Source: Oscillospiraceae bacterium (lineage in GTDB: Bacteria; Bacillota; Clostridia; Oscillospirales; Acutalibacteraceae). Taken from it: a stretch of 64,000 bases of DNA. The stretch covers positions 417-64,416 of the forward strand of contig CADAER010000005.1 in NCBI GenBank assembly GCA_902787025.1, in the 5' to 3' direction. The notes under the pieces were generated by a model. The model saw nothing but the letters and a program-made list of their open reading frames with translations, made no database searches and had not been told where the DNA came from. Numbering within the stretch: the stretch's first letter is position 1; every line of letters starts with the position of its first letter. Made by a program: the position numbers and the translations under genes. Positions 8,389-25,585 of this stretch are shown here, in pieces.

Positions 8389-8433
8389 ATGGCATTCAAG
8401 AGGTAAGGGGTTCAATCCCCCTCATCTCCACCA
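8389..8433 (+). tRNA. 3' fragment only of tRNA-Ala(GGC), probable attR; not a complete tRNA
   Basis: atggcattcaagaggtaaggggttcaatccccctcatctccacca: GGC anticodon loop, T-arm, acceptor 3' strand and CCA; no D-arm or 5' acceptor strand upstream. Confidence 0.8.
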
Positions 8434-8434: not shown

Positions 8435-8468
8435 AAAAACAGTCCGTCCTTTTGGACGGACTGTTTTT
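8435..8468. terminator. Bidirectional intrinsic terminator
   Basis: aaaaacagtccgtcc-tttt-ggacggactgttttt. Confidence 0.85.
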
Positions 8469-8599
8469 GTTTTGGTCACTGCGCCATAATCAGAATTCTA
8501 ATCCTGTCGTGATAAATTTGAATTGATTGTTTGTTTAAAGTAAAAACAGCGGAGCAAATCTTTAATCAAAAGCGATGCTCCGCTGTTTCATTAATACAT

Positions 8600-10198
8600 T
8601 TACAGGGTAATGCCTACGAATGCGAGGACTTTGGTTACAAAATCGATGATATAATCGATAACCGATTTGACGAAATCAAAGATTTTGTCGAGAAGCGATT
8701 TCTCTTCGCCTTTTACGGTAAAGCTGATTGTTTTGTCTTCGCCGAGGGTGTTGCCGTTGTTTGCTTTGAGATCTTTGCCGAGCTTGAGTGTATATTCGCC
8801 GGCTGGAAGATTCTCATAGGAAAGTTCGGTGTAGCTGTTGCCTTCACCGTTCTTTGTGAAATCGGAGAAGGTTACGCCTTCGACTTTTTTGCCGTCTTTG
8901 TCATAGATGCCTATCTGCTCGAAGTTTGCCGCCTGGTTTTCGGTCATACCGCGGTCGAAAGTGATAACTATCTTGCCGCTCGCTTCAAGTTCCGCGCCTT
9001 CAAGATCGGCATCATTTGCTTTGACCGATACAAGGCTCAGGGGATTGTTGCCGCCGCCAGTTCCCGAGCCGTCGCCCTTGACGGAGAATGAAATTTCAAC
9101 CTTTTCGCCGAGTGTGTTGCCGTTCTTTGCTTTTAATTCCTTGCCGAGGGTGAGAGTGTAGTTGCCCTTTGCGAGGTTGCCGAGCGTTACGATGAATACG
9201 GTTTTATCCGAGCCTGCGGAAACGGTGGCGTCCGCCGCGGAGCCGTCTGCCGCCTTGGCTTTGATTTTTGTGATGTTGGCCGCAAGAACGGATTCATCCG
9301 TAACATTGTTTGAGAAGGTCAGAGTAATTTCCGAACCTGCGGGTATTTTTGAGTTTGCGAGGTCGGTGTCGCCGACTTTTGCGGAGACGAGTGAAATAGT
9401 CTTCTCGCCTTCGTCACCTTCGCCGCTGCCGTTGCCGACGGTAAAGGAAACGGTTACTTTAGTGCCGAGAGTGAGTTCGGTATTCTTCGCGGAGATTTCT
9501 TTGCCGAGGTTAAGGGTATATCCGCCGTCTGCGATTTCGCCGAGATTGACTGTGATAACGGTTTTATCCGAGCCTGCGGATACAGTGACGGTTTCAACTT
9601 CGGCGCCTTCGGAATCCTTGACTTTGATTTTACTTGCGTTAGCGTCAAAAACGGTTGAGTCTGTTACATTGTTGGAAAAAGTAAGGGTAATCACGGAACC
9701 CGAAGGGATTGTCGCGCCTTCAAGGTCTGTGTCGCCGACTTTTGCGGAGATCAGTGAAAGTGTCTGTTCGCCTTCACCGCTGCCGTTGCCGACGGTAAAG
9801 GATATGGTAACTTTGGTGCCGAGAGTGAGTTCGGTATTCTTAGCGGAGATTTCTTTGCCGAGGTTAAGGGTATATCCGCCGTCTGCGATTTCGCCGAGAT
9901 CGACTGTGATAACGGTTTTGTCCGAGCCCGCGGATACGGTGACGGATTCAACTTCGGCGCCTTCGGAATCCTTGACCTTGATTTTTCCCGCGTTAGCGTC
10001 AAAAACGGTTGAGTCTGTTACATTGTTGGAAAAAGTAAGGGTAATCACGGAACCCGAAGGAATTGTTGCGCCTTCAAGGTCCGTGTCGCCGACTTTTGCC
10101 GAGGTGAGAGTAAGGTCTCCCGCCACCGCGAACACGGTGACATTGAGCACCATAAGAAGTGCGAGAATAACACTGAGAACTGATGATGTTTTTTTCAT
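8600..10198 (-). CDS. Secreted/surface protein with four Ig-like (Big_5/SbsA-like) repeats
   Basis: Signal peptide MKKTSSVLSVILALLMV; four repeats ITLTFS...YTL.LGK...ISF.V; GDGSGTGGGNNPL linker; amphipathic C-terminus. Confidence 0.75.
   Translation of the reverse strand: MKKTSSVLSVILALLMVLNVTVFAVAGDLTLTSAKVGDTDLEGATIPSGSVITLTFSNNVTDSTVFDANAGKIKVKDSEGAEVESVTVSAGSDKTVITVDLGEIADGGYTLNLGKEISAKNTELTLGTKVTISFTVGNGSGEGEQTLSLISAKVGDTDLEGATIPSGSVITLTFSNNVTDSTVFDANASKIKVKDSEGAEVETVTVSAGSDKTVITVNLGEIADGGYTLNLGKEISAKNTELTLGTKVTVSFTVGNGSGEGDEGEKTISLVSAKVGDTDLANSKIPAGSEITLTFSNNVTDESVLAANITKIKAKAADGSAADATVSAGSDKTVFIVTLGNLAKGNYTLTLGKELKAKNGNTLGEKVEISFSVKGDGSGTGGGNNPLSLVSVKANDADLEGAELEASGKIVITFDRGMTENQAANFEQIGIYDKDGKKVEGVTFSDFTKNGEGNSYTELSYENLPAGEYTLKLGKDLKANNGNTLGEDKTISFTVKGEEKSLLDKIFDFVKSVIDYIIDFVTKVLAFVGITL
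9412..10099. repeat. Recent intragenic tandem duplication, 354-bp period
   Basis: ccgctgccgttgccgacggtaaagga at 9423 and 9777; the first two Ig domains are almost identical. Confidence 0.9.
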
Positions 10199-10215
10199 TT
10201 GGATGCTTCCTTTCG

Positions 10216-11307
10216 TCAAATATTATTATCTTTCTTTTTCTTTATGATTAATGCAATCGCAGGAACTGCGATGACTGCAATAATGCCCGATATGATATAC
10301 GGAAGAGCTTTGCGCGCACCGCCGTTTTCTTTCGCTTCGGAAGTGTTGTCATTCGGAGTCTGTTGAGTTACCGACCCGGAATATGTTGCGGTTGTGTCGT
10401 TTTCTTCTGTTTCGGACCACGACCATAGATCGGACTCCAAGACGGCTGTTTCCGTCTGAGTTACCGGTTCCGTTTCGCTTGCCGTTTCTGTAACCGTAAC
10501 CGCGACAGAAGTTGTATCAGAGGTTTTTTCGGGCGCGGAAGTGCCTGCCGCCGAAGTTGCTTTTGAGGTTGATACCGCCCTGTGGGTTATTTCGCGTTTT
10601 GTTTTTTCAATTACGGTTGTCTGCTTTGCCGAAACGGGTTTTACCGTGGTCTCAGGTGTTGTCGTTGCCGTTGTTGACGGCTTGGTTGCGGATTTCGACC
10701 CGGCGGCTGCCGCCGATTTCGAGGTTTTTACTTTTGTCGTCTGTTTTGCCGTGGTTGAGGGTTTGGCGGTTGTTTGTTTGGTTGTTGTGGGTTTGTTGGT
10801 TGATGTGGCCGGCGGCTTTACCGTGGTTGTTTCCGCCGCTTTGGTTGTAAAGCTTATATAAGTGTCTCTGCCGAGGCTGACACCGCTTTTTGATGTGATG
10901 TCTTTGCCGATTTTAAGAATATATGTTGTTTCCGGTTCAAGCGGTGATTTCGGCTTTATTGTGACGATTCTTTTGATTGAAGGGTCAACCTGGTCGTCTC
11001 CCATTATGACATCGACCGGCACATTTTTTCCGTTCTCATCCGTCATTGAAAAACATTTCATATTGTTTTCCTTCACGGTGAAGTGAACAACATTTTTATT
11101 GAAATTGAGAACGATTTCGGGAGTCAGCGAGACATTCTGCGCTCCGTTTGAAACGCTTGAAGATTCAAGCGCGAGCGGTTTATCCTTTCCGCCGCCCGTG
11201 CCGTCGCCGTTGCCGCCTTCCGCATAAGCAAAGAATGCGAAAGTCAGCGCAATCAGAGCGGCGGTAATCAATGCCGTTACTCTCAGCGCGGTTTTTCTGT
11301 TCATCAT
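10216..11307 (-). CDS. Membrane-anchored surface protein: Ig-like domain on a Thr/Ser/Lys-rich stalk
   Basis: Signal peptide, GNGDGTGGGKDKPL, Ig-like domain similar to the 8600 repeats, low-complexity stalk, C-terminal TM helix plus KKKK. Confidence 0.75.
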   Translation of the reverse strand: MMNRKTALRVTALITAALIALTFAFFAYAEGGNGDGTGGGKDKPLALESSSVSNGAQNVSLTPEIVLNFNKNVVHFTVKENNMKCFSMTDENGKNVPVDVIMGDDQVDPSIKRIVTIKPKSPLEPETTYILKIGKDITSKSGVSLGRDTYISFTTKAAETTTVKPPATSTNKPTTTKQTTAKPSTTAKQTTKVKTSKSAAAAGSKSATKPSTTATTTPETTVKPVSAKQTTVIEKTKREITHRAVSTSKATSAAGTSAPEKTSDTTSVAVTVTETASETEPVTQTETAVLESDLWSWSETEENDTTATYSGSVTQQTPNDNTSEAKENGGARKALPYIISGIIAVIAVPAIALIIKKKKDNNI

Positions 11308-11309
11308 TT

Positions 11310-11513
11310 TCACCTCTTCATACACTCAAAACTGTCGGCTGTCCAGCGGCGGTAGCGGCAGTTGTAGCAGCTTACCGCATCGTCACACACAAGCTCGTCT
11401 TCGCAGTCTTCCGAGAAGAACAGGCAGTTTTCCGCTTCCCGCGCGGCAGCGTCAAATGCGCTTTTGCCGCCTGAGAATACGGTTTTTCCGTTTATTTTCA
11501 TCCATGCTGTCAT
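11310..11513 (-). CDS. Small Cys-rich protein
   Basis: CLFFSEDCEDELVC...SCYNCRYRRW...FEC; ATGA overlap with the upstream gene. Confidence 0.7.
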   Translation of the reverse strand: MTAWMKINGKTVFSGGKSAFDAAAREAENCLFFSEDCEDELVCDDAVSCYNCRYRRWTADSFECMKR

Positions 11514-12247
11514 TGGTTTTTCTCTTTGTTCTTTTTGATTTTCGGTTTGGGCATATAACAGCCGTTTTCATTAACTATGACGGCGGTAACCTGTCCTTTG
11601 CTGTAAAGCAGTTTTGTGGGATGAACAAATCTTATTGAAAGATTCTCCGTTATTTTGTTGCCCTCTTCATCGGCAAAACGGGCAACGCCGTAAACCGAGG
11701 CGAACTCGGAGAGAGTCCATTCGGGCTTGTTCGGGAGCGGTTGCAGCTTGCCTTTGATTCTGCCCTCTTCTTTCCCCGCGCGAAGAGCCGCGCCCGCGAG
11801 CGCGCCGATTATACCGCCGCCCGTGCCGCCGTGTTCGCTCAGATGAATTTCGCCTGAGAAATTTTCAGCCGCCTTGTATGCGTCCTGCTTTGTGAGAACT
11901 TCGTTTTGCGCACGCTTTCCGAAAGCGATGAGAGATGAATAATCGAGATTTTCGTCATCGGGCAGAATGCAGAGGCCGGGATCGGAGCCTTCGGCGGAGT
12001 ATTCTTCGAGATAACTCTCACAGAATCCAGTGAACGCATCAAGGTCGGTTGTTTCGACTGTGCAGCACATTGAGCTGTTGTGGGAGGTGTATGGGATATC
12101 TTCGTGAATATAAAGCTGGTAGCGGACCGTGAATCCGCTTTTCGCGAGGTCTTTGATTGCCGCCTCGCCCATCATATTCTCGAGGAGTTCACCCGTGCCG
12201 ATGCTGTCGTAATTGTCGGTGTCATCTATGCAGACAAACAGTTTCAA
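11510..12247 (-). CDS. Stand-alone TiaS N-terminal-like (DDTD motif) protein
   Basis: CIDDTD...GTG, QLY...IPYTSHNSSMC, SDPGLC, GGTGGGIIGALAG; no OB-fold or Zn-ribbon tRNA-binding domains. Confidence 0.65.
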   Translation of the reverse strand: MKLFVCIDDTDNYDSIGTGELLENMMGEAAIKDLAKSGFTVRYQLYIHEDIPYTSHNSSMCCTVETTDLDAFTGFCESYLEEYSAEGSDPGLCILPDDENLDYSSLIAFGKRAQNEVLTKQDAYKAAENFSGEIHLSEHGGTGGGIIGALAGAALRAGKEEGRIKGKLQPLPNKPEWTLSEFASVYGVARFADEEGNKITENLSIRFVHPTKLLYSKGQVTAVIVNENGCYMPKPKIKKNKEKNQ

Positions 12248-13320
12248 GCGGCATCCTCCTTATGCTCGGTTTTCGGCTCGCGCATTTCGGTGCCTTCGAT
12301 TATCGCGCCGAGCCAGTCATCGTTTATTTCAAAACCGAAAAAGTTTTTGTAAAAGGTTTTTATTTCGGCGTTCATATCTACTTCGAATGTGTCGGGATAA
12401 AGCAGATTCATAAGCCAGAGCATCGCGAGAGGCGTTTCAAAACTTGAGGGATGCCCCCATCTTGTTATGCCGATGGGGATCTGATAAACCTCGCCGTTCT
12501 GCACGCAGGAGAGCCCCTGCCATTTGGAGTCGCCCAGAATGTAGTCATCCACCTGCGCCTCGTTGCAGATGATTATGTCGGGATTCCATGCGTAAATCTG
12601 CTCGAGGGTTGTGTATGCCTTTTCGCCTTCGATGCTTAATTTTCCGCTTTCGACCGAGACATTTTCGACTCCCGTCAGGGCTATCCATTCGGCGCAGTAG
12701 CTGCCCTCATAATCGGTGCGCACCGCTTCGTTGACGGAGTGATAGAGGCGTTTCGGCGTTCCCTGCGCGCCATTTTGCGCGCGGTCAATAACAGAGCGGA
12801 AATATGAAACATATTCTTCCGCTTTTCCGGTGTTGCCGAAGGTAGTGCCGAGAATTTCAACGGCTTCGAGCTGGTCTTCTATGGTGTTGTAATCAATTAC
12901 GATATAAGGGATTCCCATGGCGTCGATTTTGGCGCGCTCGGTTGAGTCCTCATAAACGCCTGAATTAAGAATAATGAGGTCGGTATTTCTCGCCATAATT
13001 TCCTCCGCGTTGACCGAACCGCTGTTTTTGACAACAACTGCGTTTTCAAGTGAAGGACAAATCTGCATAAGCAGGCGGCTTCTCGCCGCGTTGTTTGTGA
13101 AGGAAGTGATTTTGTCTCCGCTGCCGAGCATAACGATTATCGGACCTGAGAACGGACAGAGCGTGCAGACGGACTGCGGATTTTCAGGCACGGAAACCTC
13201 TCTGCCGACGGAATCCGTCACGACGAAACCGTCCTTCCCGGGAGTCGCCTTCGGTGTGCAGCCGCAGATTGAAACCATTATTAAAATGAGCGTTATTGTA
13301 AGAGCCGAGCATCTTTTCAT
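12244..13320 (-). CDS. Type II ABC substrate-binding lipoprotein (FecB/BtuF/MolA-like)
   Basis: Lipobox ICGC, VTDSVGREVSVP, LEQIYAWNPDIII. Confidence 0.85.
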   Translation of the reverse strand: MKRCSALTITLILIMVSICGCTPKATPGKDGFVVTDSVGREVSVPENPQSVCTLCPFSGPIIVMLGSGDKITSFTNNAARSRLLMQICPSLENAVVVKNSGSVNAEEIMARNTDLIILNSGVYEDSTERAKIDAMGIPYIVIDYNTIEDQLEAVEILGTTFGNTGKAEEYVSYFRSVIDRAQNGAQGTPKRLYHSVNEAVRTDYEGSYCAEWIALTGVENVSVESGKLSIEGEKAYTTLEQIYAWNPDIIICNEAQVDDYILGDSKWQGLSCVQNGEVYQIPIGITRWGHPSSFETPLAMLWLMNLLYPDTFEVDMNAEIKTFYKNFFGFEINDDWLGAIIEGTEMREPKTEHKEDAA

Positions 13321-13335
13321 AAGGGATTCTCCTTA

Positions 13336-14139
13336 TTATATATCACTGCCGATAACGGCAACTGTTTTTACTGTTTTGCCTCCGGCTTTTATCTCTGTAA
13401 CCTCGGCGCGAACGCCGTAAACCTCTCTGAGCGTTTCCGGAGTGATGAGTTCGCCGGGCGCGCCCGTGCGGAAGGGTTTGCCCTTGCAGAGCATAACCGC
13501 TTTTGAGGGGATGCCCTCCGATTCAAAATACAGAGGATGCTGCAAAGCGTGTGTTGCCATAAGCACGGAAATACCGTCGCTTCGCACAAGATCCGAGAGC
13601 ATTTCGAGAAACAGCAGTTCGTTTTTGAAATCGAGCGAGCTTGTGGGTTCGTCGAGAACAATGAGAGGCGCTTTCTGCGCGAGAGCGCGAGCCAAAAGAA
13701 CGAGTTTTCGTTCGCCTCCCGAAAGCTCGGTGTAAGGTCTTTCGGAGAAGTTTTCAATTCCCGTGCGGGCTATGGCGTAATCGCAGATTTCGTAATCCTC
13801 TTTGCCGGGCGCTCCTAAAAGCCCGGACTGCGCTGTTCTGCCCATCAGCACAACCTCGCGCACTGTGTATGGAAAAGTCGGCGCGTGAACCTGCGGAACA
13901 TAAGAGACAAGTTTAGCGAGTTCGGGACGGGAAAGAGTTAAAACATCTTTGCCGCAGACCGAAACTAAACCCGAAAATGTGCGATGGAAACCGAGAACAC
14001 AGTCAAGCAGAGTGGTTTTTCCGCTTCCGTTTGGTCCGAGAAGGCATATTATTTCGCCTTTGTCCGCAGACAGCGAAAGGTTTTCAAGGAGGGGTGTTTT
14101 ATCGTATGAAAAAGAGAGGTTGTCAATGTTTAAAATCAC
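13336..14139 (-). CDS. Type II ABC transporter ATP-binding protein
   Basis: GPNGSGKTT, LSGGE, LDEPT; start reassigned to GTG 14139, overlapping the permease stop. Confidence 0.9.
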   Translation of the reverse strand: MILNIDNLSFSYDKTPLLENLSLSADKGEIICLLGPNGSGKTTLLDCVLGFHRTFSGLVSVCGKDVLTLSRPELAKLVSYVPQVHAPTFPYTVREVVLMGRTAQSGLLGAPGKEDYEICDYAIARTGIENFSERPYTELSGGERKLVLLARALAQKAPLIVLDEPTSSLDFKNELLFLEMLSDLVRSDGISVLMATHALQHPLYFESEGIPSKAVMLCKGKPFRTGAPGELITPETLREVYGVRAEVTEIKAGGKTVKTVAVIGSDI

Positions 14140-15149
14140 GCTTTGAAACCTCCCTTCGTCTTTTTGAGAAGGTAAACGAAGAAGGGTGTGCCAATGAGGG
14201 CGCAGAGGATGCCTATGGGTATTTCCGAACCTGTCAATGTGCGAGAGAGCAGGTCCATAATTACCATAAACGCCGCGCCGAGAGAGATGCTGACGGGAAT
14301 CAGCTTCTGGTTGCTGTTGCCCGTGAGCATTCTGCCGATATGGGGAATCACAAGCCCCACCCAGCCGATGGTGCCGCTTATGCACACGGCGGCGGCTGTG
14401 CAGAGGGTGGCGCCTCCGATAATGAGAATCTGCGCTTTTTTCACATCAAGCCCGAGCGAGGCGGCTTCCCTCTCGCCCATAGACAGAACATTGAGTTTCC
14501 ACCGTGACAGGAAAATGAGAAGCATACCCAATCCCATCGGAATCAGTGCGTAAAGGTGGGAATAATTGATTGAAGCGAAACTGCCCATAAACCAGAATGT
14601 GATTGAGGGAAGCTGACTATATGGATCGGCGACATATTTCATTATTGAAACAAGGGCGCTGAAAAATGCGCCTACAATAACACCGCCGAGAATCATTGTA
14701 ATTGATGTTGTCACGCGCGAGATTCTGCCCGCGAAATAACTGAGAAGAACCGCGGCAACCGCGAATACAAACGAAAAGAAATATGTGAATACTCCGCCGC
14801 CGAAGAAAACTATCGCCACGCAGGCACCGAAGCCCGCTCCGTTTGATACGCCGAGAATACCCGAATTGACAAGCGGATTGCGGAAAACGCTCTGGAACGC
14901 AGCGCCCGACACCGCGAGAGACGCGCCGACAAAGGCGGAGGCAATCGCTCTGGGAAGGCGGAGATGAAGCACCGCGACACGGGAGGCGAGAGGCACGCTT
15001 TCGGGTTTTATGAGCGAGAGTGCGACTTCGCTGAGCGGTATGTGATATCTGCCGAAAAACAGCGAAATGAAAACAGCGAGGAACGGTATAATGAGAAGCA
15101 GAGCTTTTACAGGCAGAGAAAGAGTGCCCGCAGACTTGTTCTTTTGCAT
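14136..15149 (-). CDS. FecCD/BtuC-family permease
   Basis: LRLPR, FRNPL, GWVGLVIPH, EIPIG. Confidence 0.9.
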   Translation of the reverse strand: MQKNKSAGTLSLPVKALLLIIPFLAVFISLFFGRYHIPLSEVALSLIKPESVPLASRVAVLHLRLPRAIASAFVGASLAVSGAAFQSVFRNPLVNSGILGVSNGAGFGACVAIVFFGGGVFTYFFSFVFAVAAVLLSYFAGRISRVTTSITMILGGVIVGAFFSALVSIMKYVADPYSQLPSITFWFMGSFASINYSHLYALIPMGLGMLLIFLSRWKLNVLSMGEREAASLGLDVKKAQILIIGGATLCTAAAVCISGTIGWVGLVIPHIGRMLTGNSNQKLIPVSISLGAAFMVIMDLLSRTLTGSEIPIGILCALIGTPFFVYLLKKTKGGFKA

Positions 15150-15183: not shown

Positions 15184-15618
15184 TTACAAAACGGTTATTT
15201 CGTCGTTTTCTTTAACTGTGCCGCCTTCGAGAACAATGCCGAAAATGCCTTCTTTGGGCATAATGCACTGGCCGACGAGTTCTCTTATGGCGCAGCCGTC
15301 ATGGCACTCCTTGCCTATCTGGGTTACCTCAATTACGGCTTCATCGCCGATTTTCAGTTTTGTGCCTATGGGAAGAGTGTGAAGTTCAATGCCCTCGGTG
15401 GTGATGTTCTCCGCGAACATACCGTGGCAGAGGCCGTCCGTTCTCATTCCTTTTGCTTTTTCAATGCTTTCTTTGGCGAGCAGACTTACCTGACGATGCC
15501 ACTTGCCCGCGTGTGCGTCGCCCTCAAAGCCGAAATCTTTTATGAGTTTACCCTCCGGAATTGTCTTTTTCGGAGTTTTCTTTTTTTCGCTGATGTTTAC
15601 AGCAACTACTTTTGCCAT
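15184..15618 (-). CDS. MOSC-domain protein
   Basis: GDAHAGKWHRQVSLL, FAENIT, QIGKECH, CIMPKEGIF. Confidence 0.9.
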   Translation of the reverse strand: MAKVVAVNISEKKKTPKKTIPEGKLIKDFGFEGDAHAGKWHRQVSLLAKESIEKAKGMRTDGLCHGMFAENITTEGIELHTLPIGTKLKIGDEAVIEVTQIGKECHDGCAIRELVGQCIMPKEGIFGIVLEGGTVKENDEITVL

Positions 15619-15619
15619 A

Positions 15620-16555
15620 TTATCCTCCCGTTCTGTTAAGCCCGTGACCGGTATTTTTGTTTTCAAAACTGTGCCCCGCGGGCTTTTTCAGAATTGTATT
15701 TTTAACTTCTTCAAGAAGTCTGTCTTCGTCGTCAATGAACTGCATTATGTCATAGGCGGTGTCATAACCGAGGCAGGGTTTGACTTTACCGTCCGAGAGC
15801 AGGCGGATTCTGTTGCAGTCGGAGCAGAATTTCTGAGTAATCGGGTTTATGAGGCCTATTCTGCCTTTGAAGCCGTCGGCGGAATAATACCGTGCCGTGC
15901 CTTCTTTATAATCAATCGGGCTGAGAAACGGAAATTCTTTTAAAAGCTCATCGCCCGTTACTATAAGCGAGGCGTTTTCACCCTCATCGGAAAACGGCAT
16001 AAGCTCAATGAAGCGCACATCGATATTTCTTTTTTTCGCAAGATTGATAAGCTCCCCCGCTCCGTCATCGTTTACGCCTTTCATCAACACGGCGTTGATT
16101 TTTACGGGCGATAATCCTGCGCTCTGCGCTTCGTCGATTCCTTCAAGCACTTTTTTGAGCACATCCGCTCCCGTGAGGTGGCGGTAGGTGCTGCCGTCGG
16201 TGCTGTCAAGACTGATATTGACGCTGTCGAGCCCCGCTTTTTTCAGGTCTTCTGCATATTGAGCGAGGTAAACTCCGTTGGTTGTCAGGGCGAGCGTTTC
16301 AACGCCCGCGATTGAGTGTATTTTTTTCGTTATTTCGCAGATGTCTTTCCGCACAAGCGGTTCGCCGCCCGTAATGCGGACTTTGTTTATTCCGCATTTC
16401 ACAAACGCTCTCACAAGTTTTTCGATCGTTCCGGGAGAAAGCTCGGTCTCCTTTTTGGCGCAGTCGCTCTTGCCGCAATACACACAGTTGAGATTGCAGC
16501 GCTGAGTTACGGACACACGCAGATATGAAATTTCTCTGCCGAAATTATCCTTCAT
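15620..16555 (-). CDS. moaA: GTP 3',8-cyclase (radical SAM)
   Basis: CNLNCVYC, TGGEPL, FCSDCNRIRL...CL, C-terminal GG. Confidence 0.95.
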   Translation of the reverse strand: MKDNFGREISYLRVSVTQRCNLNCVYCGKSDCAKKETELSPGTIEKLVRAFVKCGINKVRITGGEPLVRKDICEITKKIHSIAGVETLALTTNGVYLAQYAEDLKKAGLDSVNISLDSTDGSTYRHLTGADVLKKVLEGIDEAQSAGLSPVKINAVLMKGVNDDGAGELINLAKKRNIDVRFIELMPFSDEGENASLIVTGDELLKEFPFLSPIDYKEGTARYYSADGFKGRIGLINPITQKFCSDCNRIRLLSDGKVKPCLGYDTAYDIMQFIDDEDRLLEEVKNTILKKPAGHSFENKNTGHGLNRTGG

Positions 16556-17012
16556 TATGATAATCGCTCTTTCCGCCCGTTTTTTCGAGCAGTTTTATTT
16601 CTTCAATAACCATATCCTTGCCCATTGCCTTGCACATATCGTAAACGGTTAATGCGGCTATTGAAGCGCCTGTTACGGCTTCCATTTCGATACCCGTTTT
16701 GTAGGTGCATTTCGCGCGGACATAAATACCTAGAGCGCAGTCGCTCTCCTTTTCAAAATCAACGGTGATTTTATCAATCGGGATATTGTGGCACAGCGGA
16801 ATAAGTTCGCTCGTTTTTTTAGCGCCCATTATTCCCGCGATACGCGCGGCGGCAAGCCCGTCGCCTTTTTTGAGATCCGCGTTCAAAAGTGCCTCCAGGG
16901 CTTCGGGTTTCATTTTTATTCTCGCGTAGGCGGTAGCGGTGCGTTCGGTTGTTTCTTTCCCACCGATATCGACCATTACCGCTTCGCCGTTTTCGTTAAT
17001 ATGAGTCAGCAT
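16545..17012 (-). CDS. moaC: Cyclic pyranopterin monophosphate synthase
   Basis: LTH...MVDIGGK, LIPLCH, TGIEMEA, YDMCKA, KTGGKS. Confidence 0.95.
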   Translation of the reverse strand: MLTHINENGEAVMVDIGGKETTERTATAYARIKMKPEALEALLNADLKKGDGLAAARIAGIMGAKKTSELIPLCHNIPIDKITVDFEKESDCALGIYVRAKCTYKTGIEMEAVTGASIAALTVYDMCKAMGKDMVIEEIKLLEKTGGKSDYHNEG

Positions 17013-17013
17013 T

Positions 17014-18891
17014 TCAGCCCTCCGTATAGCCGCCCATTTCATTGAGACGGGTTTTGAATTCATCAGAGTAAAGCACTTCGAGGAAGGCTTTTACCATCGG
17101 GTTTTCAAGATACTTTTTGTCAATCAGAAATTCGTATGTTTCATTGCATATAGGAATAAAGTCGAGGTCATACATTTTCGCGGCGGAGTAAATTCCGAGG
17201 CCCGCGTCGGCATTACCCGCGGCAATGAGAGCCGCGACGGCGGTGTGAGTGAATTCCTCGTTGTTGTAGCCGTTTATTTCATCCGCGGATATTCCGTTTT
17301 TGTCAAGAAGATAATCGCAGAGTATTCTCGTTCCCGCTCCGCGCTGGCGGTTTACATAGCGGGCGTTTTTAATATCGGCAAATTCTTTGATTCCCAGAGG
17401 ATTGCCTTTTTTAACCATTAAGCCCTGAACTCTGCCCACGCCCCGAACGGCGAGGGCATTGCCCGACGGGATGTATTTTTCAATGTAAGATTTATTGTAT
17501 TCGCCTGTTTCGGCGTCGAGCAGATGAATGCCGCCCATGTGCGCGAGACCGTCGCGCACGGCGTAAATTGCGCCCATACTGCCGACATGGGTTGAACAGA
17601 CTCTGAACGGTGCGCCTTTCTTTGCGAGAAAGTCGGAAACCTCATCAATCAGCGGGTCGTGGCTGCCCGTGATAATCAAGGTGTTTTCGATTTCGCAAAG
17701 CGGTCTGTTGAGGCGTATCGCAACCTCCTCGCCCGCTTCGATTCCCTCGCAGTCCTGCGGAACAAGCAGAACTCCGTCCGCCTTTGTGAAGCTCGTAATC
17801 ACGCCCGCTCCTCTCGCGAGAGGCGAAGCGGAGAGTTTTTCTCCGATTCTGCCGAGTGACACACGGACATATTCGGTGTATTTAAGTGAGGAGACAATTT
17901 TTTTGGAGAGCGTAGCTTTTACCGTTTCGCCCTTTGCGCGCTCTTTGCCGTAATACATTGAAACAACATCGCCGACGATTTCATCCATAATAACTATTGC
18001 CGAAACAGGGTAGCCGGGGATGCCGATGATGGGCTTGCCCCGCGCCTCACCGAGAACCGCGGGCTTGCCGGGTTTTATCGCTATGCCGTGGACCAGTACG
18101 GTGCCGAGCGATGAAATAATCTCGCTTGTGTAATCATCTCTGCCCGCTGAGGAACCCGCCGAGATAAGAACAATATCACATTCGGCAAGAGCTTTCTCAA
18201 CGGCTGATTTAATCAGTTCTTTTTTATCGGGAGTTATCGGATATACTTTTGCTTCGGCTCCGAAGGAATCAAGCATACCCTTGAAGACGGTTGAGTTGAA
18301 TTCAATTATATCGCCTTTACCGGGATTGCTTGTGGGCGCAACTATCTCATCCCCTGTCGGAATAATGCCGGCAAGCGGTTTTTTCACAACCTCGATTTCG
18401 GTTATTCCGCCCGCGAGGAGCGCTCCGCAGAGAGACGGGGTGAGAACCGTTCCCGAGGGCGCAATCATATCGCCCATACAGATATCCTCGCCTACCTGGC
18501 GGACATTCTGCCAGGGATATACGGCGGAGATAATATTGAATTTGTCATCGCCCGCATCAATCAGATCCTCAACCATAATAACGGCATCGCAGCCGTCGGG
18601 AATCGGATCGCCGGTATCAACAACGGTGTAGTCGGCGACATCAAGCGTTACGGGAGTTTTTTCGCTCGCTCCGAAGGTCTTTTCCGATTTCACGGCAACG
18701 CCGTCCATAGCGCTTGCGTTGTAATGAGGCGAGCAGATAACGGCGTAGGCGGCGTTTTTAATCACTCTGCCGCAGGCGTCGGTTACTTTGACTGTTTCGG
18801 TCTTGCCCGAAAAGCCCGACGCTTGCAAGTGGTTGAAGAGAATTGTTTTCGCCTCGTCGAGAGGCACATTGTTTAAATAGTTGTGTTTCAT
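17014..18891 (-). CDS. moeA: MoeA fused to a C-terminal PBP (oxyanion-binding-like) domain
   Basis: SAMDGVAV, PTGDE, IKPGKP, GIPGYP; PBP part GSHD, VNRQRGAGTR. Confidence 0.9.
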   Translation of the reverse strand: MKHNYLNNVPLDEAKTILFNHLQASGFSGKTETVKVTDACGRVIKNAAYAVICSPHYNASAMDGVAVKSEKTFGASEKTPVTLDVADYTVVDTGDPIPDGCDAVIMVEDLIDAGDDKFNIISAVYPWQNVRQVGEDICMGDMIAPSGTVLTPSLCGALLAGGITEIEVVKKPLAGIIPTGDEIVAPTSNPGKGDIIEFNSTVFKGMLDSFGAEAKVYPITPDKKELIKSAVEKALAECDIVLISAGSSAGRDDYTSEIISSLGTVLVHGIAIKPGKPAVLGEARGKPIIGIPGYPVSAIVIMDEIVGDVVSMYYGKERAKGETVKATLSKKIVSSLKYTEYVRVSLGRIGEKLSASPLARGAGVITSFTKADGVLLVPQDCEGIEAGEEVAIRLNRPLCEIENTLIITGSHDPLIDEVSDFLAKKGAPFRVCSTHVGSMGAIYAVRDGLAHMGGIHLLDAETGEYNKSYIEKYIPSGNALAVRGVGRVQGLMVKKGNPLGIKEFADIKNARYVNRQRGAGTRILCDYLLDKNGISADEINGYNNEEFTHTAVAALIAAGNADAGLGIYSAAKMYDLDFIPICNETYEFLIDKKYLENPMVKAFLEVLYSDEFKTRLNEMGGYTEG

Positions 18892-20084
18892 AAGCTGTAT
18901 ATTCCCATCACTGTTCCTTTGCTCAGCCCTTCGGCGTTTCTCGGAATTCTTATGAAGCCCTTTGCTTCGGAGAGCACCGAGATTATGCCGGATTTTGTGT
19001 GCAGAGGAACAATTTCATTGTTTTCGTTTAATTTCACACAGAGGAATTCCTCTCTGCCGTGGTTTGAGGGGATATTCAAAGCGAGCGTGCCGTTATAAAC
19101 GGGCTTGTCTTCGGGCAGATTCATAATTCCGCGCAGATATTCGGTTACAACAAGACGGAACACGAAATAAGCCGCGAGCGGATGACCCGGAAGACCGAAT
19201 ACGGGTTTATCGTTTACAATTCCGAAAATTGTCGGCTTGCCGGGTTTCATCGCTATGCCGTGAAAATATGCCTTGCCGAGAGTGTCGATTATATCAACGG
19301 TCATATCTCTCGCGCCCGCCGACGAGCCGCCCGAAATAATGACGGCATCGGCTGTTTCAAGACATTCTCTGAGCGCTGTTTCTATTTCATCCCTTTTGTC
19401 CGCGACCGCGCCGTATTCAATCACTTCGCAACCGTATTCTCTGAACGCGGCGGACAGCAGGAATGTGTTTACATCTCTTATCTGACCTGGTTTCGGCGAA
19501 CCCGTAACAATTTCATCGCCTGTCGAGATAACGGCGACTTTCGGATTTTTATAAACCTGAACTTCGGTTATTCCGAGGGCGGCGAGCACGCCGATCTGAG
19601 AGGGTTTGATTAAAGTTCCCTTTTTCAGCGCGGTTTCGCCTTCGGAAACATCATCGCCTTTTCTTGTGATGTTTTCGTAAGGAGCGACCGATTTATACAC
19701 AAGGCACAGACCTTCGGCAGAATCGGTATGCTCGACCATAACGGCGGCATCCGCTCCTTCGGGGAGCATTCCGCCTGTTGAAATTTTCGCGCACTGACCT
19801 CTTTTGAGGATAAAGTCCGCGCTTTCGCCCATAAGAATTTCTCCGGCGATTTCAAGCTGTGCGGGTATTGAGGCACCCGCGCCGAAGGTGTCCGCCGCGC
19901 TGACCGCGTAACCGTCAACCGTAGTTCTGTCAAATGACGGAACATTTTCAGGAGACACGATATCGCGGGCGAGGACTCTGCCGCAGGCGTTACGGATGTT
20001 GACTTTTTCAATTCCGGGTGTGAGATGAGCCGTTTTTTCTCTGATGAGCGCGACAGCTTCTTCTCTGTTGAGAACATTAAGCAT
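18888..20084 (-). CDS. moeA: Molybdopterin molybdo/tungsto-transferase
   Basis: VDGYAV, STGDE, SGGSSAG, MKPGKP, GLPGHP. Confidence 0.95.
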   Translation of the reverse strand: MLNVLNREEAVALIREKTAHLTPGIEKVNIRNACGRVLARDIVSPENVPSFDRTTVDGYAVSAADTFGAGASIPAQLEIAGEILMGESADFILKRGQCAKISTGGMLPEGADAAVMVEHTDSAEGLCLVYKSVAPYENITRKGDDVSEGETALKKGTLIKPSQIGVLAALGITEVQVYKNPKVAVISTGDEIVTGSPKPGQIRDVNTFLLSAAFREYGCEVIEYGAVADKRDEIETALRECLETADAVIISGGSSAGARDMTVDIIDTLGKAYFHGIAMKPGKPTIFGIVNDKPVFGLPGHPLAAYFVFRLVVTEYLRGIMNLPEDKPVYNGTLALNIPSNHGREEFLCVKLNENNEIVPLHTKSGIISVLSEAKGFIRIPRNAEGLSKGTVMGIYSL

Positions 20085-20743
20085 TATATCTTCCACCCCG
20101 CAACAAAACTTTTTGCCCATTGAGTTTCGGGATTAGCGAGCGTTTCTTCGGGAGAGCCGTCAGTCTCGACTTTACCGCCGTTGAGAATTATCAGTCTGTC
20201 GGCGGCGTTCAGAGCCAGCAGCGGTGAATGGGTGCTCATAATCACAGTGCATCCGCTTTCACGCTGATAATCCTTTATCGCTTTTATTACAAGTTCGGCT
20301 CCCTTCGCGTCGCAGGCGGAGGTCGGTTCGTCAAGGAGCAGCAGATCGCATTTTCTTGAAAGCACGCGACAGAGCGACAGGCGCTGCAGTTCTCCGCCCG
20401 AGAGCGATTTCGCCTTTTTGCCGGCTAAATGGGAAAGTTCGAGCTTTTCAAGCAGTTCAAGCGCTTCTTTTCTGTCCGCGCCGCTTATCGTAATGTTTCT
20501 CAGAGTATCTCCGCGGAAAGCGTAGGAACTCTGCGGCATATAAAGAACATTTTCGGGAATGTGAAAACCGCCTTCGCTCCCCTTAATTATTCCCGCGAGG
20601 ATTTTAAGCAGGGTTGTTTTACCGCTGCCGTTCGCGCCCGCGAGAGCCGCTGTTTCGCCGTCTCTGAATTCAAGTCCGGGTATATCAAGCACGGTTCTTT
20701 CGCCGTATATTTTTTTAAGATTCTTTATTTCAACCATCGGCAT
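20084..20743 (-). CDS. tupC: Tungstate ABC transporter ATPase
   Basis: GANGSGKTT, LSGGE, LDEPT; follows tupAB. Confidence 0.8.
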   Translation of the reverse strand: MPMVEIKNLKKIYGERTVLDIPGLEFRDGETAALAGANGSGKTTLLKILAGIIKGSEGGFHIPENVLYMPQSSYAFRGDTLRNITISGADRKEALELLEKLELSHLAGKKAKSLSGGELQRLSLCRVLSRKCDLLLLDEPTSACDAKGAELVIKAIKDYQRESGCTVIMSTHSPLLALNAADRLIILNGGKVETDGSPEETLANPETQWAKSFVAGWKI

Positions 20744-21416
20744 TCTCCTTCACGATAAACGAGGCAACAGCGTTGACGGCGAACGCGATAATAAGCAGGA
20801 TTATGCCGAGGGCGAGGGCAAATGAGAATTTGCCCTTGTTGGTTTCAAGCATAATTGCGGTTGTCATAACTCTTGTTTTCCACTGAATATTGCCGCCGAC
20901 TATGCTGACGGCTCCGACCTCGGCTATTGAGCGGCCGAAGGCGTTGAGAACAACGGAAAACAGCGAAGAGCGCCCTTCGCCTATGCACAGGCGGGCGGTT
21001 TTGAGCCCGGAAAAACCAAGCCCCCTCGCCGTTTCAATGACAGGCTTTGAAGCGCTCTCTATAAATGATGATGTGAGCCCGATTACCACAGGTGTTATGA
21101 GCATAACCTGAGCCACAACCATAACCCTGACGGTAAAGAGCATATTGAGCTTTCCGAAAGGTCCGTAGTGAGTAAACAGAGAATACACTATCAGGCCTGC
21201 CACCACAGGCGGCAAGCCCATAAGAGTGTGTATCAGTTTTTTTATAAACGATTTCCCGCGGAAGGACTTTGAACCGATAAGCGAACCGAGAGGCAGACCT
21301 ATCAGGCAGGAAATCAGCGTGCTGAAAAATGACATTCTCAGCGTGACGCCGATTATCTGCAAAAGTTCCCTGTCCGGCGGAAAAAGAAGTTCAAACGCCT
21401 GACGGAAGCTTTCCAT
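20730..21416 (-). CDS. tupB: Tungstate ABC transporter permease
   Basis: LMGLPPVVAGL, EVGAVSIVGGNI..TRVMTTAI. Confidence 0.9.
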   Translation of the reverse strand: MESFRQAFELLFPPDRELLQIIGVTLRMSFFSTLISCLIGLPLGSLIGSKSFRGKSFIKKLIHTLMGLPPVVAGLIVYSLFTHYGPFGKLNMLFTVRVMVVAQVMLITPVVIGLTSSFIESASKPVIETARGLGFSGLKTARLCIGEGRSSLFSVVLNAFGRSIAEVGAVSIVGGNIQWKTRVMTTAIMLETNKGKFSFALALGIILLIIAFAVNAVASFIVKENADG

Positions 21417-21426: not shown

Positions 21427-22284
21427 TTAAAGCAGATTGAAAAGGGCAACGCCGTATTCGGCTTCACCGTATTTTGCAATAAGTTCGCTCGCTTCGTCGG
21501 AGAGCATCCAGTCGATAAACGCCTGCGCGCCATCGGTGTTGAGACCGTCAATCTTTTCGGGGTTGACTGCGATGAGCGAATAAGTGTTTTTCATATCCTC
21601 GCCTTCGGCAAGAACGATGTCGAGGTCGAGTTCATCCTGCATTGAGAGGAAGGTCGCCTTGTCTGTCAGGCAGTATGCCTGCTGCTCGCTTGCCATTGTA
21701 AGGCAGGCGCCCATGCCCTGACCCGCGCTGATATACCAGCTGTCGCTTTCGGCGTCGGGAGCGATGTCGCCCCAGATTTTGAGTTCGGCTTTATGTGTGC
21801 CGCTCTCGTCTCCGCGGGAGACAAACTTGCTTTCGCTCTCTCTGATTTTCGCGAAAGCGGTTGCCGCGTCGGCGCTGTCTTTAACACCCGCTGGATCGTC
21901 CTTGGGACCGACGATTACGAAATAGTTATACATAAACGGAAGTCTCTCAACGCCGTAGCCGCCATCAATAAACTCCTCTTCGGACGCTTTGGCGTGAACA
22001 AGAATAACATCGGCGTTGCCGTCGATTGCTTTCTGGATGGCCGCGCCTGTACCTGCGGACTGAACCTCAACTTTATAGCCGGTTTCCGCTTCAAATGCCG
22101 GAAGCAGATAAGGAAGAAGGCCCGAGTCGTTGACCGATGTGGTGGTTGAAAGACGGATAACCGGATTTTCGGGTGTTTCAACAACCTGAGAAGTTGATTC
22201 CGGTTCGGTTTCTGTCTTTGAGCCGCAGGCGGCAAGACCGGCCACGAGAATGAGAGCCAATAAAACTGCAAATATTCTTTTCAT
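21427..22284 (-). CDS. tupA: Tungstate-binding lipoprotein
   Basis: Lipobox LAAC, TTTS signature, GTGAA, SRGDESGTH. Confidence 0.9.
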   Translation of the reverse strand: MKRIFAVLLALILVAGLAACGSKTETEPESTSQVVETPENPVIRLSTTTSVNDSGLLPYLLPAFEAETGYKVEVQSAGTGAAIQKAIDGNADVILVHAKASEEEFIDGGYGVERLPFMYNYFVIVGPKDDPAGVKDSADAATAFAKIRESESKFVSRGDESGTHKAELKIWGDIAPDAESDSWYISAGQGMGACLTMASEQQAYCLTDKATFLSMQDELDLDIVLAEGEDMKNTYSLIAVNPEKIDGLNTDGAQAFIDWMLSDEASELIAKYGEAEYGVALFNLL

Positions 22285-22414
22285 GATATTTACTCCTTTT
22301 CAAACACGGAAGGCACCGCCGTTTCCCGCGATACCCTTAAGCCGATGGATGTATTTCGGCTTCGGCTTAACAGGCATACAATTACGCTTAGCCCGCAAAG
22401 CTCGGATAATATCA
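22285..22414 (-). ncRNA. Moco RNA motif (Mo/W-cofactor riboswitch candidate)
   Basis: Minus strand TCCGAGC...CTAAG...TATG, stem ttaagccga/tcggcttaa, AGGG, GGAAAC loop, GCCTTCCG...GAAAAGGAG; closing stem tgatatt/aatatca encloses the tupA RBS. Confidence 0.85.
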
Positions 22415-25573: not shown

Positions 25574-25585
25574 GGAGGCGTGATT

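Follow-up and report, generated by a model that had tools for sequence, protein, structure and literature searches.

Parts of the locus described here resemble systems already known. The type II molybdate/tungstate importer MolBC-A (HI1470/HI1471/HI1472) of Haemophilus influenzae coexists with the high-affinity oxyanion system ModABC, and its binding protein MolA has the ligand residues Y114, K221, R264 and Y301 (bioRxiv 10.64898/2026.10.15.759412). The oxyanion importers TupABC, ModABC and WtpABC, all of type I, are regulated by Moco riboswitches (Regulski et al. 2008, PMC2408646), and Moco RNAs that lack P3 are of the Tuco type (PMC2408646). The kinase domain of TiaS, the archaeal tRNA(Ile2) 2-agmatinylcytidine synthetase (3AMT, 3AMU, 5XOB, 4RVZ), has dual RNA and protein specificity (PMC11938285). 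Finally, DUF364 and FmdE are uncharacterised accessory proteins that recur beside molybdate/tungstate transporters (PMC2954201; bioRxiv 10.1101/2024.03.05.583561), and DUF364 was predicted by JCSG to bind a flavin or pterin (PMC2954201).

The window, the whole 64,000-nucleotide stretch of DNA analysed here, contains seven minus-strand genes at 8600-15149 that combine features of these systems. The most probable explanation, at a probability of roughly 0.55, is a conserved supply module for tungsten (or molybdenum) that serves pterin-cofactor enzymes such as the aldehyde oxidoreductase AOR, is tied to Moco/Tuco riboswitches and includes an ATP-dependent cytoplasmic step. The module has three parts, namely a MolBC-A-type importer, one or two exported Big_5 proteins and the cytoplasmic pair TiaSL–CysMini; its function, like the transport and enzyme activities of all its members, is a putative assignment. 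Literature searches returned no paper on it.

Organisation of the locus

The operon is led by a riboswitch aptamer (78.6 bits against an Rfam gathering score of 36) that lies on the same strand as the genes and 5' of them and includes the P3 hairpin (Table 1). Its 3' end covers the ribosome-binding site and ATG of tupA, and it looks translational in type. The tungstate importer genes tupABC, moeA, a moeA fusion, moaC, moaA and a MOSC gene are followed by seven abutting or overlapping genes, in the order FecCD permease, ATPase, binding lipoprotein, TiaSL, CysMini and two exported Big_5 proteins. The MOSC–FecCD junction is a 34-nt gap with the ribosome-binding site GGAAAGGAG and no hairpin, the FecCD/ATPase, lipoprotein/TiaSL and TiaSL/CysMini genes overlap at GTGA, TTGA and ATGA, respectively, and the remaining gaps within the module are 20 nt or shorter. 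No promoter or terminator stood out between tupA and the module, and terminator-like hairpins occur only past the last gene. The riboswitch acts at tupA, 7-13 kb upstream of the module genes, and we infer from the sequence that it would also control these distal seven. A divergent AOR cluster (22493-26220) lies upstream of the operon. Two gene starts were reassigned: the longest ATPase ORF extends to 14385, with the GTG that overlaps the permease stop as the likely start, and Big5b probably begins at the ATG at 10198. An importer, a TiaS-like enzyme, a Cys-rich mini-protein and two Ig-like proteins had been proposed by a sequence-only reading of this DNA, and Rfam, Pfam and NCBIfam searches place all of them where that reading had put them.

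Table 1. Features of the riboswitch-led operon and the divergent AOR cluster in the window.
Feature	Positions	Strand	Evidence or remark
Terminator-like hairpins	about 8545-8586 and 8435-8468 (bidirectional)	minus	3' of last gene
Big5b	8600-10219	minus	Signal peptide; four Big_5/CopC-like Ig repeats in tandem; C-terminus hydrophobic
Big5a	10216-11307	minus	Signal peptide, Big_5 Ig-like domain, C-terminal membrane anchor
CysMini, 67 aa, Cys4	11310-11513	minus	Start overlaps TiaSL stop (ATGA)
TiaSL, 245 aa	11510-12247	minus	Stand-alone TiaS kinase domain (TCKD) and C-terminal beta domain
Class III substrate-binding lipoprotein (Peripla_BP_2), MolA homologue	12244-13320	minus	Pfam
ABC ATPase, 267 aa	13336-14139	minus	Pfam; PDB match to MolC
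Type II ABC importer permease, FecCD fold	14136-15149	minus	Pfam FecCD, E 1.4e-83
MOSC	15184-15666	minus	Pfam, NCBIfam
moaA	15620-16555	minus	Pfam
moaC	16545-17063	minus	Pfam, NCBIfam
moeA-PBP_like fusion	17014-18891	minus	Pfam
moeA	18888-20120	minus	Pfam
tupC	20084-20743	minus	Pfam ABC_tran; tungstate ABC importer
tupB	20730-21416	minus	Pfam BPD_transp_1; tungstate ABC importer
tupA	21427-22284	minus	Pfam PBP_like_2; tungstate ABC importer
Moco/Tuco riboswitch aptamer RF01055	22277-22419	minus	Rfam
moaB/mogA	22493-22999	plus	Divergent tungsten-enzyme cluster
thiF/moeB	22996-23643	plus	Divergent tungsten-enzyme cluster
AOR (tungsten-type aldehyde oxidoreductase)	23627-25573	plus	Divergent tungsten-enzyme cluster
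moaD	25580-25837	plus	Divergent tungsten-enzyme cluster
4Fe-4S ferredoxin	25807-26220	plus	Divergent tungsten-enzyme cluster

Importer, surface proteins and the cytoplasmic pair

The best PDB match of the permease is MolB HI1471 (2nq2_A; E 1.1e-63, 218.8 bits), followed by FhuB (E 4.7e-46, 160.9 bits), with MolB about 58 bits above FhuB, BhuU, HmuU and BtuC. Similarly, the top match of the ATPase is MolC HI1470 (2nq2_C, E 9.2e-39). The binding lipoprotein can be aligned to MolA along its entire length (3psa_A, E 5.8e-18; query 33-329 to chain 3-320), though it is closer to two uncharacterised structural-genomics proteins (4ovk, 4hn9). Only one of the four MolA ligand residues is kept, as they align with Y123, S207, A255 and H290 of the window protein, and Y123 itself lies outside the conserved positions of the family, in which R80, N104, E106, Y193, H194, R201, E240, N253, R287 and H290 are invariant. 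Because the other three are replaced, binding of a free oxyanion is putative, and the pocket would count against plain tungstate as the cargo.

The surface protein Big5a has a GDGTGGG..PL motif and a Ser/Thr-rich linker. In Pfam searches, both exported proteins matched only Big_5 and related Ig-like/CopC-like families, and no NEAT domains were found. An assignment as CopC copper-binding proteins was rejected, the Pfam CopC match being confined to profile positions 18-73 of 92 and the NCBIfam CopC score to 43.3 bits against a cut-off of 95.

TiaSL displays the motifs DDTD, T18, R42, IPYTSHNS, GSDPG and GGTGxGxIGALAG together with three family-specific invariant cysteines (C6, C61 and C93). Its TiaS-like character, suggested by the sequence-only reading, was confirmed at three levels. 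The NCBIfam TiaS model matches at E 3.9e-5 (22.4 bits against a cut-off of 600, positions 2-149 of 422 only), the TiaSL family profile matches PDB TiaS at E 1e-7 over residues 1-156 with DDTD, T18, R42, IPY-T-N, PG and G-G-IGALA in register, and a Foldseek search with the AlphaFold model (pLDDT 91.8) returned TiaS structures as sole matches (E 1e-10, rmsd 2.4-3.0 Å over ~158 residues). An orthologous role in tRNA modification was rejected, since the OB fold and zinc ribbon are missing, the full-length score is not reached, and the genes around it are those of transporter or Mo/W operons, with a Cys4 mini-protein as neighbour or fusion partner.

This partner, CysMini, has the invariant residues C30, C49-x2-C52, C64, D36, E40, R55 and R56. 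Fusions of the two are frequent, occurring in L075, L109 and no fewer than 14 representative clusters with lengths of about 290-340 aa, one of which was verified by hhalign (E 1.5e-55). Several further clusters fuse TiaSL to FAD/2Fe-2S oxidoreductases (DAO/2Fe-2S), and in P0135 the CysMini motif sits between TiaSL and a DAO/Fer2_BFD domain. Complex prediction for the pair gave a score of 0.32, compared with 0.01 for the best of three controls, in a range (0.60 or below) where just 7 of 80 solved complexes reach the mark and where both passing mismatches fall; overall, the mark was reached by 58 of these 80 complexes and by 2 of 110 mismatched pairs. The runs shared at least 69% of contacts, with partner pLDDT of at least 82, and the model thus weakly suggests that TiaSL and CysMini may form a complex.

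A possible mechanism for the supply module is as follows. When the cofactor is scarce, the riboswitch would release the operon, and the Big_5 proteins and the lipoprotein would capture tungsten or molybdenum species that TupA does not serve, whether in another affinity range or in a thio-, poly- or chelated form, for import by the MolBC-like pump. In the cytoplasm, TiaSL could use ATP to activate an oxygen atom through O-phosphorylation, as the TiaS domain does on the C2=O of cytidine; Terasaka et al. (2011) reportedly showed that this domain phosphorylates a carbonyl oxygen with ATP and so prepares it for substitution. The activated oxygen may be an oxo group on either the metal species or an intermediate of the cofactor; the Cys4 partner could then supply a thiolate or sulfide to replace it, and the product would proceed to the MoeA and MOSC steps.

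Genomic contexts and candidate cargo

The TiaSL family comprises more than 3000 clusters at 90% identity and occupies at least 591 loci in species-representative genomes of Bacillota, Desulfobacterota, Gammaproteobacteria, Kiritimatiellales and Lentisphaeria. CysMini adjoins TiaSL in 62 of 87 non-close loci. Among the same 87, a transporter of any type is adjacent in 69, with FecCD-type importers in 58 (51 of which include an exported protein of Big_5 or Oxidored_molyb-like type), ECF-type transporters in 14 and Tup in 5. The pair directly follows TupABC in L061, L062 and L115, without any further importer in L061 and L115, and follows ECF-type transporters in Desulfobacterota and Shewanella, while in Geobacter it stands alone directly behind a riboswitch (L085, L092, L094, L096). 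In L115 it closes a TupABC-MoeA-MoaC-MoaB-TiaSL-CysMini series, and in L097 it likewise lies within a biosynthesis operon. Under the supply reading, the TiaSL–CysMini pair is the core unit, and the attached importer (FecCD-type, ECF-type or Tup) is interchangeable.

These contexts could also mean that the module unites two separable functions, with the FecCD system as a second MolBC-like tungstate/molybdate pump and the pair acting in cofactor maturation whatever the cargo, for instance in an ATP-driven exchange of oxo for sulfido or thiolate ligands or in metal selection upstream of MoeA/MOSC. The association with three transporter types or none, the biosynthesis operons of L115 and L097, the invariant TiaSL cysteines, the Cys4 site of CysMini and the MOSC gene adjoining the module in the window would all agree with such a division. 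However, in two thirds of the loci (58/87) no other gene separates the pair from the FecCD importer, stop and start codons overlap in the window copy, and a transporter adjoins it more tightly (69/87) than expected for a pure biosynthesis enzyme, which makes separate functions rather unlikely.

The link to tungsten and molybdenum was assessed through riboswitches and enzymes. Conservation of the neighbourhood with Moco RNAs, a test set beforehand, was found in about 25 of the 87 more distant loci, and such an RNA lies upstream on the same strand in 20 of the 58 FecCD-type modules. Rfam matches upstream on the same strand were obtained in L002, L025, L027 and L029-L032. Our own riboswitch model gave 38 matches in 1.45 Mb of flanking sequence, 35 of them on the TiaSL strand. 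A stand-alone operon of Moco RNA, Big_5, FecCD, ATPase, binding protein, TiaSL and CysMini occurs in L063, L077, L079, L106 and L109, the L063 RNA being of the Tuco type without P3. In a sister species (L002) the operon is split, and the module has a riboswitch copy of its own that is 82% identical to the tup riboswitch of the window. Mo/W genes cluster independently with the module or pair in Acetobacterium (L062), Kiritimatiellales (L072), L115 and Geobacter L085, and further in L032, L047, L071, L089 and the P0120 contig. In a Clostridia sample, AOR (AFOR_N) was present in 13 of 13 TiaSL genomes compared to 51 of 399 overall, spanning 6 families, an association that overstates independence because 8 of the 13 carriers belong to one family. 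TupA was present in all 12 carriers examined. The riboswitch placement, the L002 copy and the AOR association uphold the earlier view of the module as a part of Mo/W-cofactor metabolism, not an iron or B12 system that is only a neighbour.

An importer of iron chelates, heme or corrinoids with accessory genes, standing behind the Mo/W operon by chance in this genome, is already disfavoured and highly improbable. It could draw on the generic family matches to BtuC, FhuB and FecCD and to IsdE and ferrichrome-binding proteins, and on the roughly half of the FecCD-type modules that have neither a Moco RNA nor a Mo/W gene in the surrounding 10 kb (absence was verified with Rfam in 10 loci). Against it stand the recurrent, independent placement behind Moco/Tuco riboswitches, the strict co-occurrence with AOR and TupA in the sample and the nearest solved relatives, MolB and MolC, ahead of Btu, Fhu and Hmu; moreover, the Rfam scan of loci showed neither a cobalamin riboswitch nor a marker of iron regulation in front of the module. 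A cobalamin riboswitch does lie nearby in L034, yet ahead of a different FecCD system.

In one Clostridia family, the riboswitch-led operon adds lipoproteins exported through Sec that carry an Oxidored_molyb-like domain (a Moco-binding fold), an FMN_bind lipoprotein, DUF364, FmdE, a phosphodiesterase of the alkaline-phosphatase family and an ECF transporter whose S component is of YkoE type. Except for FmdE, these neighbours and the DAO/2Fe-2S fusions would suit a cargo that is organic, redox-active or phosphorylated more than a metal on its own. They could point to salvage, in which surface and binding proteins would take up tungsto-/molybdopterin, its precursors (MPT, cPMP) or dinucleotide and other Moco/Tuco fragments shed by other anaerobes in anoxic communities, with import by the type II or ECF system and re-phosphorylation or re-activation by the TiaS-type kinase and its Cys4 partner, the pyrimidinone ring of the pterin resembling the cytidine substrate of TiaS. 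This would be the first Moco/Tuco cofactor-salvage pathway in prokaryotes. A pocket unlike that of MolA and rich in Arg, His, Asn and Glu, the TonB-dependent receptors alongside Gram-negative versions and the coverage of tungstate by TupABC in all carriers sampled also favour salvage.

Nevertheless, salvage appears doubtful. The pair occurs behind TupABC in the absence of any further importer, or by itself behind a riboswitch; the permease and ATPase are nearest to a small-substrate pump; and the small Oxidored_molyb-like proteins cover only positions 66-160 of a 169-position profile and have, besides the lipobox Cys, no cysteine able to ligate the metal. A bacterial uptake system for Moco is not known to us, and none came up in the literature searches. 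Nor is salvage needed, because MoaC and two copies of MoeA are present in all five carriers examined. The original suggestion that an enzyme repairs an imported pterin-metal cofactor gains no specific support: the pair is not bound to this importer, the pump is closest to one for small oxyanions, and de novo synthesis and TupA are in place. A metal chelate or other non-oxyanion cargo is a candidate alternative in view of the three MolA ligands lost from the binding lipoprotein and of the TonB-dependent receptors. Under the preferred supply reading, this widespread and uncharacterised module points to an undescribed step in the provision of tungsten or molybdenum enzymes.

Comparison with described systems

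TiaSL residues 1-156 share the Thr18-Cyt34 kinase-domain fold and motifs of TiaS, but this 245-aa protein is bacterial, has no OB fold or zinc ribbon, and differs by its invariant Cys6, Cys61 and Cys93 and its Cys4 partner. With the Isd/NEAT heme relay and BtuFCD, the module has in common surface-anchored beta-sandwich proteins, a class III binding lipoprotein and a type II importer, whereas it lacks NEAT domains, a sortase signal (the anchor is a C-terminal transmembrane helix) and heme or B12 markers, and its regulation is by Moco RNA. As with the DUF364/FmdE clusters, uncharacterised accessory proteins recur here beside Mo/W transporters, and DUF364 and FmdE are found in operons with the module in the one Clostridia family; the window copy has neither gene, and TiaSL and CysMini are unrelated to both. 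Like the TupABC, ModABC and WtpABC regulons, the module places metal-supply genes behind a cofactor-sensing RNA, with TupABC in the very same operon of the window, but it is of type II, with another binding-protein fold and extra non-transport genes.

MolBC-A has several features in common with the module: the three-part architecture, the best PDB matches of permease and ATPase by a clear margin, the full-length alignment of the binding protein, and coexistence with a high-affinity oxyanion system, ModABC in H. influenzae and TupABC in the module carrier. The module differs in three of the four MolA ligand residues and in possessing a TCKD enzyme, a Cys4 protein and dedicated surface proteins of Big_5 type, all of which MolBC-A lacks; furthermore, it stands under a Moco/Tuco riboswitch in many lineages, and its carriers include AOR-bearing Gram-positive anaerobes.

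Operon anatomy in the window

A Moco RNA heads 15 closely packed genes on the minus strand of the window. The front half of this operon was assigned by Pfam to tupA, tupB, tupC, moeA, a moeA-PBP_like fusion, moaC, moaA and a MOSC protein, and the last seven genes form the module considered here, which encodes an importer (FecCD permease, ATPase and a binding lipoprotein, SBP), a TiaS-like protein (TiaSL), a Cys4 mini-protein (CysMini) and two exported Ig-like proteins (Big5a and Big5b). The MOSC and FecCD genes are separated by a 34-nt gap bearing a strong ribosome-binding site, the other module junctions consist of stop/start overlaps (GTGA, TTGA and ATGA) and short gaps, and terminator-like hairpins occur only 3' of the last gene of the operon. 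The gene set and layout described in the sequence-only reading are thus borne out by the Rfam and Pfam assignments, the tight junctions and the terminal-only hairpins, and judging from this anatomy the operon is probably co-transcribed.

Features of the riboswitch-led operon and its surroundings in the window
Feature	Position	Strand	Assignment or remark
Tungsten-type AOR, in divergent upstream cluster with moaB, thiF/moeB, moaD and ferredoxin	23627-25573	+	
Moco RNA (RF01055)	22277-22419	-	Rfam, 78.6 bits
FecCD permease	14136-15149	-	Pfam
ABC ATPase	13336-14139	-	Pfam
SBP, Peripla_BP_2 lipoprotein	12244-13320	-	Pfam
TiaSL, 245 aa	11510-12247	-	without Pfam family
CysMini, 67 aa	11310-11513	-	Cys-rich
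Big5a, Big_5 protein	10216-11307	-	signal peptide and C-terminal anchor
Big5b	8600-10219	-	four Big_5/CopC-like repeats
tRNA 3'-end-like fragment	8407-8433	+	exact; T arm, acceptor, CCA

MoaA, MoaC, MoaD, MoeB, MoaB and MoeA are all encoded in the window. No MoaE (PF02391) was detected in the window's genome (87.7% complete) or in two of five other carriers, and even where present the match was weak (about 32 bits); in the window's genome it could be divergent, unassembled or replaced. At the other end of the operon, the tRNA-like fragment stands alone, as no whole tRNA was found anywhere in the window, and the GC content shifts near position 8500 from about 0.50 to 0.35-0.45 on the left side, where WYL and helicase genes sit. 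Together, the fragment and the shift look like an att remnant at the border of an integrated island.

The TiaSL-CysMini pair

TiaSL gave a weak match to the NCBIfam TiaS model (E 3.9e-5, residues 2-152) and a weaker one to methanogenesis marker protein 11 (TIGR03280, C-terminal half; E 6e-4), the latter hinting at more uncharacterised non-tRNA members of the TiaS kinase fold. A PDB search with the single sequence returned only noise, and the match to TiaS structures came from profile and fold searches. With the AlphaFold model (pLDDT 91.8), Foldseek retrieved TiaS structures only (E 1e-10, about 158 residues aligned, rmsd 2.4-3.0 Å), and the family profile matched TiaS chains over residues 1-156 (E 1e-7), pairing the DDTD, Thr18, R42, IPY-T-N, PG and G-G-IGALA elements of TiaSL with those of TiaS. 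In an alignment of 29 homologues, C6, D8, D9, T10, D11, T18, G19, R42 and Q44 were invariant, as were the blocks IPYTSHNSSMC, GSDPG-C, LSEHGGTGxGxIGALAG and GRxKGK. Among the Atlas neighbours of TiaSL, TiaS_TCKD was present and TiaS_FLD occurred in some. Since TiaSL lacks both the OB fold and the zinc ribbon of TiaS, these comparisons place it in the TiaS kinase-domain superfamily as a stand-alone protein rather than as a TiaS orthologue.

CysMini belongs to no family in Pfam or NCBIfam. Besides a Cys4 site, it has an acidic patch and three arginines that are invariant or nearly so. Its model (pLDDT 86.4) gave no fold match in the PDB by Foldseek and a best Z of 2.8 by VIA-align against 48,161 chains; no fold is therefore assigned to it, be it zinc ribbon or Fe-S.

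At 90% identity the TiaSL family falls into more than 3000 clusters, every one unnamed or 'hypothetical', and it occupies at least 591 loci among species-representative genomes of Bacillota, Desulfobacterota, Gammaproteobacteria, Kiritimatiellales and Lentisphaeria. Neighbours were mapped by tblastn in 96 fetched loci (numbered with L), 87 of which are not closely related to the window. CysMini adjoins TiaSL in 62 of these 87, and the two are fused in L075, in L109 and in at least 14 representative clusters, the latter of about 290-340 aa, one of which was verified by hhalign (E 1.5e-55). A FecCD-type importer is present in 58 loci, 51 of them with an exported Big_5 or Oxidored_molyb-like protein, while an ECF-type transporter is found in 14 and TupAB in five. 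The pair is thus the conserved core, and the attached transporter is variable. Prediction of the TiaSL-CysMini complex (0.32, with 0.01 for the best control) lends weak support to a contact: the mark was met by 58 of 80 solved complexes and two of 110 mismatched pairs, and at scores of 0.60 or below by only seven of the 80 solved complexes and by both of the mismatches.

Other fusions were encountered. TiaSL is joined N-terminally to a DAO and Fer2_BFD FAD/2Fe-2S oxidoreductase in the family entries P0131 and P0134-P0140 and in L117 (6502-9414), and P0135 carries the CysMini motif at 260-297; neighbours of these fusions include a Pyr_redox_2/DUF1667 protein, DUF2149, SLH-anchored Big_5 proteins, FecCD-ATPase-SBP and TupAB. 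In L096 (10748-11884), no stop codon separates the CysMini frame from a TupA-like protein that has a signal peptide of its own; the resulting 379-aa ORF may be a true fusion or an assembly error. A 613-aa SBP-TiaSL 'fusion' (P0130) was left out of the evidence, as a real fusion would have an implausible topology and the ORF probably arises from reading through the TTGA overlap.

Link to molybdenum and tungsten, and possible cargo

Of the first 12 diverse loci, seven have an Rfam Moco RNA upstream on the same strand, and our own covariance model (R1), which was built from these RNAs and captured only 10 base pairs, gave 38 matches in 1.45 Mb of flanking DNA, with 35 on the same strand as TiaSL. 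A stand-alone form, [Moco RNA]-Big_5-FecCD-ATPase-SBP-TiaSL-CysMini, recurs in L063, L077, L079, L106, L109, L090 and L030, and in Geobacter the riboswitch stands immediately 5' of TiaSL-CysMini (L085, L092, L094 and L096). The sister species (L002) encodes its tup-moe genes on the opposite strand, and its module follows a separate riboswitch that shares 82% identity with the tup leader of the window. Moreover, tup, moe, moa, mog and AOR genes occur together with the module or with the pair in independent clusters (L062, L072, L115, L085, L047, L071, L089 and the P0120 contig). In a Clostridia sample, AOR was present in 13 of 13 TiaSL carriers, which are in part related to one another (eight belong to one family), compared with 51 of 399 genomes overall. 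TupA orthologues were found in all 12 carriers other than the window's genome, which rules out the module as a Tup replacement. The association with Mo/W is therefore strong. At the same time, about half of the FecCD-type modules have no Mo/W marker within 10 kb, and in 10 marker-less loci the absence of a riboswitch by Rfam upheld the negatives of our model, so other regulation must exist there.

Module riboswitches of other lineages, such as the Moco RNA of L063, are without the P3 hairpin, a type linked to the tungsten cofactor (Regulski et al. 2008, PMC2408646). The window's RNA has P3, the 'Moco type' of the same study, and nevertheless heads tupABC and adjoins a tungsten-type AOR; it may be an exception to the rule that P3 denotes molybdenum. 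Arrays of 4-8 Moco RNA matches in about 11 kb, some in tandem and interspersed with AOR, TiaSL-CysMini and transporter genes, were seen in Geobacter and Desulfotomaculum (L094:271-11176; L085:5474-11162; L101:2271-2804).

The closest solved relative of the permease is MolB/HI1471 (E 1.1e-63), with FhuB, BhuU, HmuU and BtuC about 58 bits or more below, and that of the ATPase is MolC/HI1470. Similarly, the SBP aligned over its full length with MolA/HI1472 (E 5.8e-18), which ranked third after two uncharacterised structural-genomics proteins. At the MolA ligand residues Y114, K221, R264 and Y301 (bioRxiv 10.64898/2026.10.15.759412), however, it has Y, S, A and H, and 66 module-linked orthologues share a distinct invariant set (R80, N104, E106, Y193, H194, R201, E240, N253, R287 and H290). 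By these matches the importer is MolBC-A-like in architecture and ancestry, with a ligand site of its own. As for the surface proteins, a GDG[ST]GGG..PL motif is kept immediately after the signal peptide and ahead of the Big_5 domain in most of 45 Big5a orthologues, along with FxKNV, M-x-D-D-Q and K-x-G, and the Gly-rich motif also precedes the Big5b repeats (8600-11307, minus strand).

The MolBC ancestry of permease and ATPase, the occurrence of the pair directly with TupABC (L061, L062 and L115) and the de novo pterin synthesis of the carriers checked favour a metal species as cargo. The altered SBP site, the constant coexistence with Tup, the dedicated surface proteins and the TonB-dependent receptors alongside Gram-negative versions argue for something more complex than plain tungstate. 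The sequence-only reading proposed surface capture, import and enzymatic repair of a pterin-metal cofactor or metal chelate; the Mo/W link stands, whereas pterin repair is not specifically supported and is one of several options. Salvage in place of a missing de novo pathway is ruled out, as the carriers checked hold MoaC, two MoeA copies and 2-7 AOR genes. What keeps pterin salvage alive, though without establishing it, are the DAO/Fer2_BFD fusions beside Big_5, FecCD and Tup genes and a Moco-riboswitch-led operon of about 12 kb in one Clostridia family (L029:3144-15431, also L025 and L027). This operon encodes an FMN_bind lipoprotein, DUF364/DUF4213, an FmdE-like protein, FecCD-ATPase-SBP-TiaSL, an alkaline-phosphatase-family phosphodiesterase, a YkoE-type ECF S component with ECF A, A' and T, and three Sec-exported Oxidored_molyb-like lipoproteins.

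Proposed chemistry and its place among known systems

According to Terasaka et al. 2011, the TiaS domain reportedly phosphorylates a carbonyl oxygen with ATP, after which a nucleophile replaces the oxygen. PMC11938285 describes the domain as a kinase that has specificity for both RNA and protein. TiaSL has the TiaS catalytic core, supplemented by three cysteines (C6, C61 and C93) that are invariant. The most economical proposal is that TiaSL would use ATP to activate an oxo or carbonyl oxygen on an imported W/Mo species or a cofactor intermediate, that this oxygen would then be exchanged for a thiolate or sulfide, and that the product would feed the MoeA/MOSC steps encoded directly upstream.

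Literature searches found no publication on the TiaSL family or module, and nothing relevant on TiaS-like proteins tied to Mo/W or on bacterial Moco uptake. The pair is widespread across many anaerobic phyla and in many lineages lies behind Moco/Tuco riboswitches; control by an end-product riboswitch is among the strongest genomic evidence for a gene's role in supplying that product. A possible use lies in the heterologous production of tungsten enzymes (AOR and CO2-reducing formate dehydrogenases), and the pair is also relevant to competition for trace metals within rumen and gut communities. How tungsten and molybdenum are acquired, told apart and inserted is only partly understood, and the list of known parts (Tup/Wtp/Mod, MoaB/MogA and MoeA) has been static for years. 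Once defined, the chemistry of the pair would introduce a further step into W/Mo cofactor metabolism, and would be the first non-tRNA function of the TiaS kinase fold.
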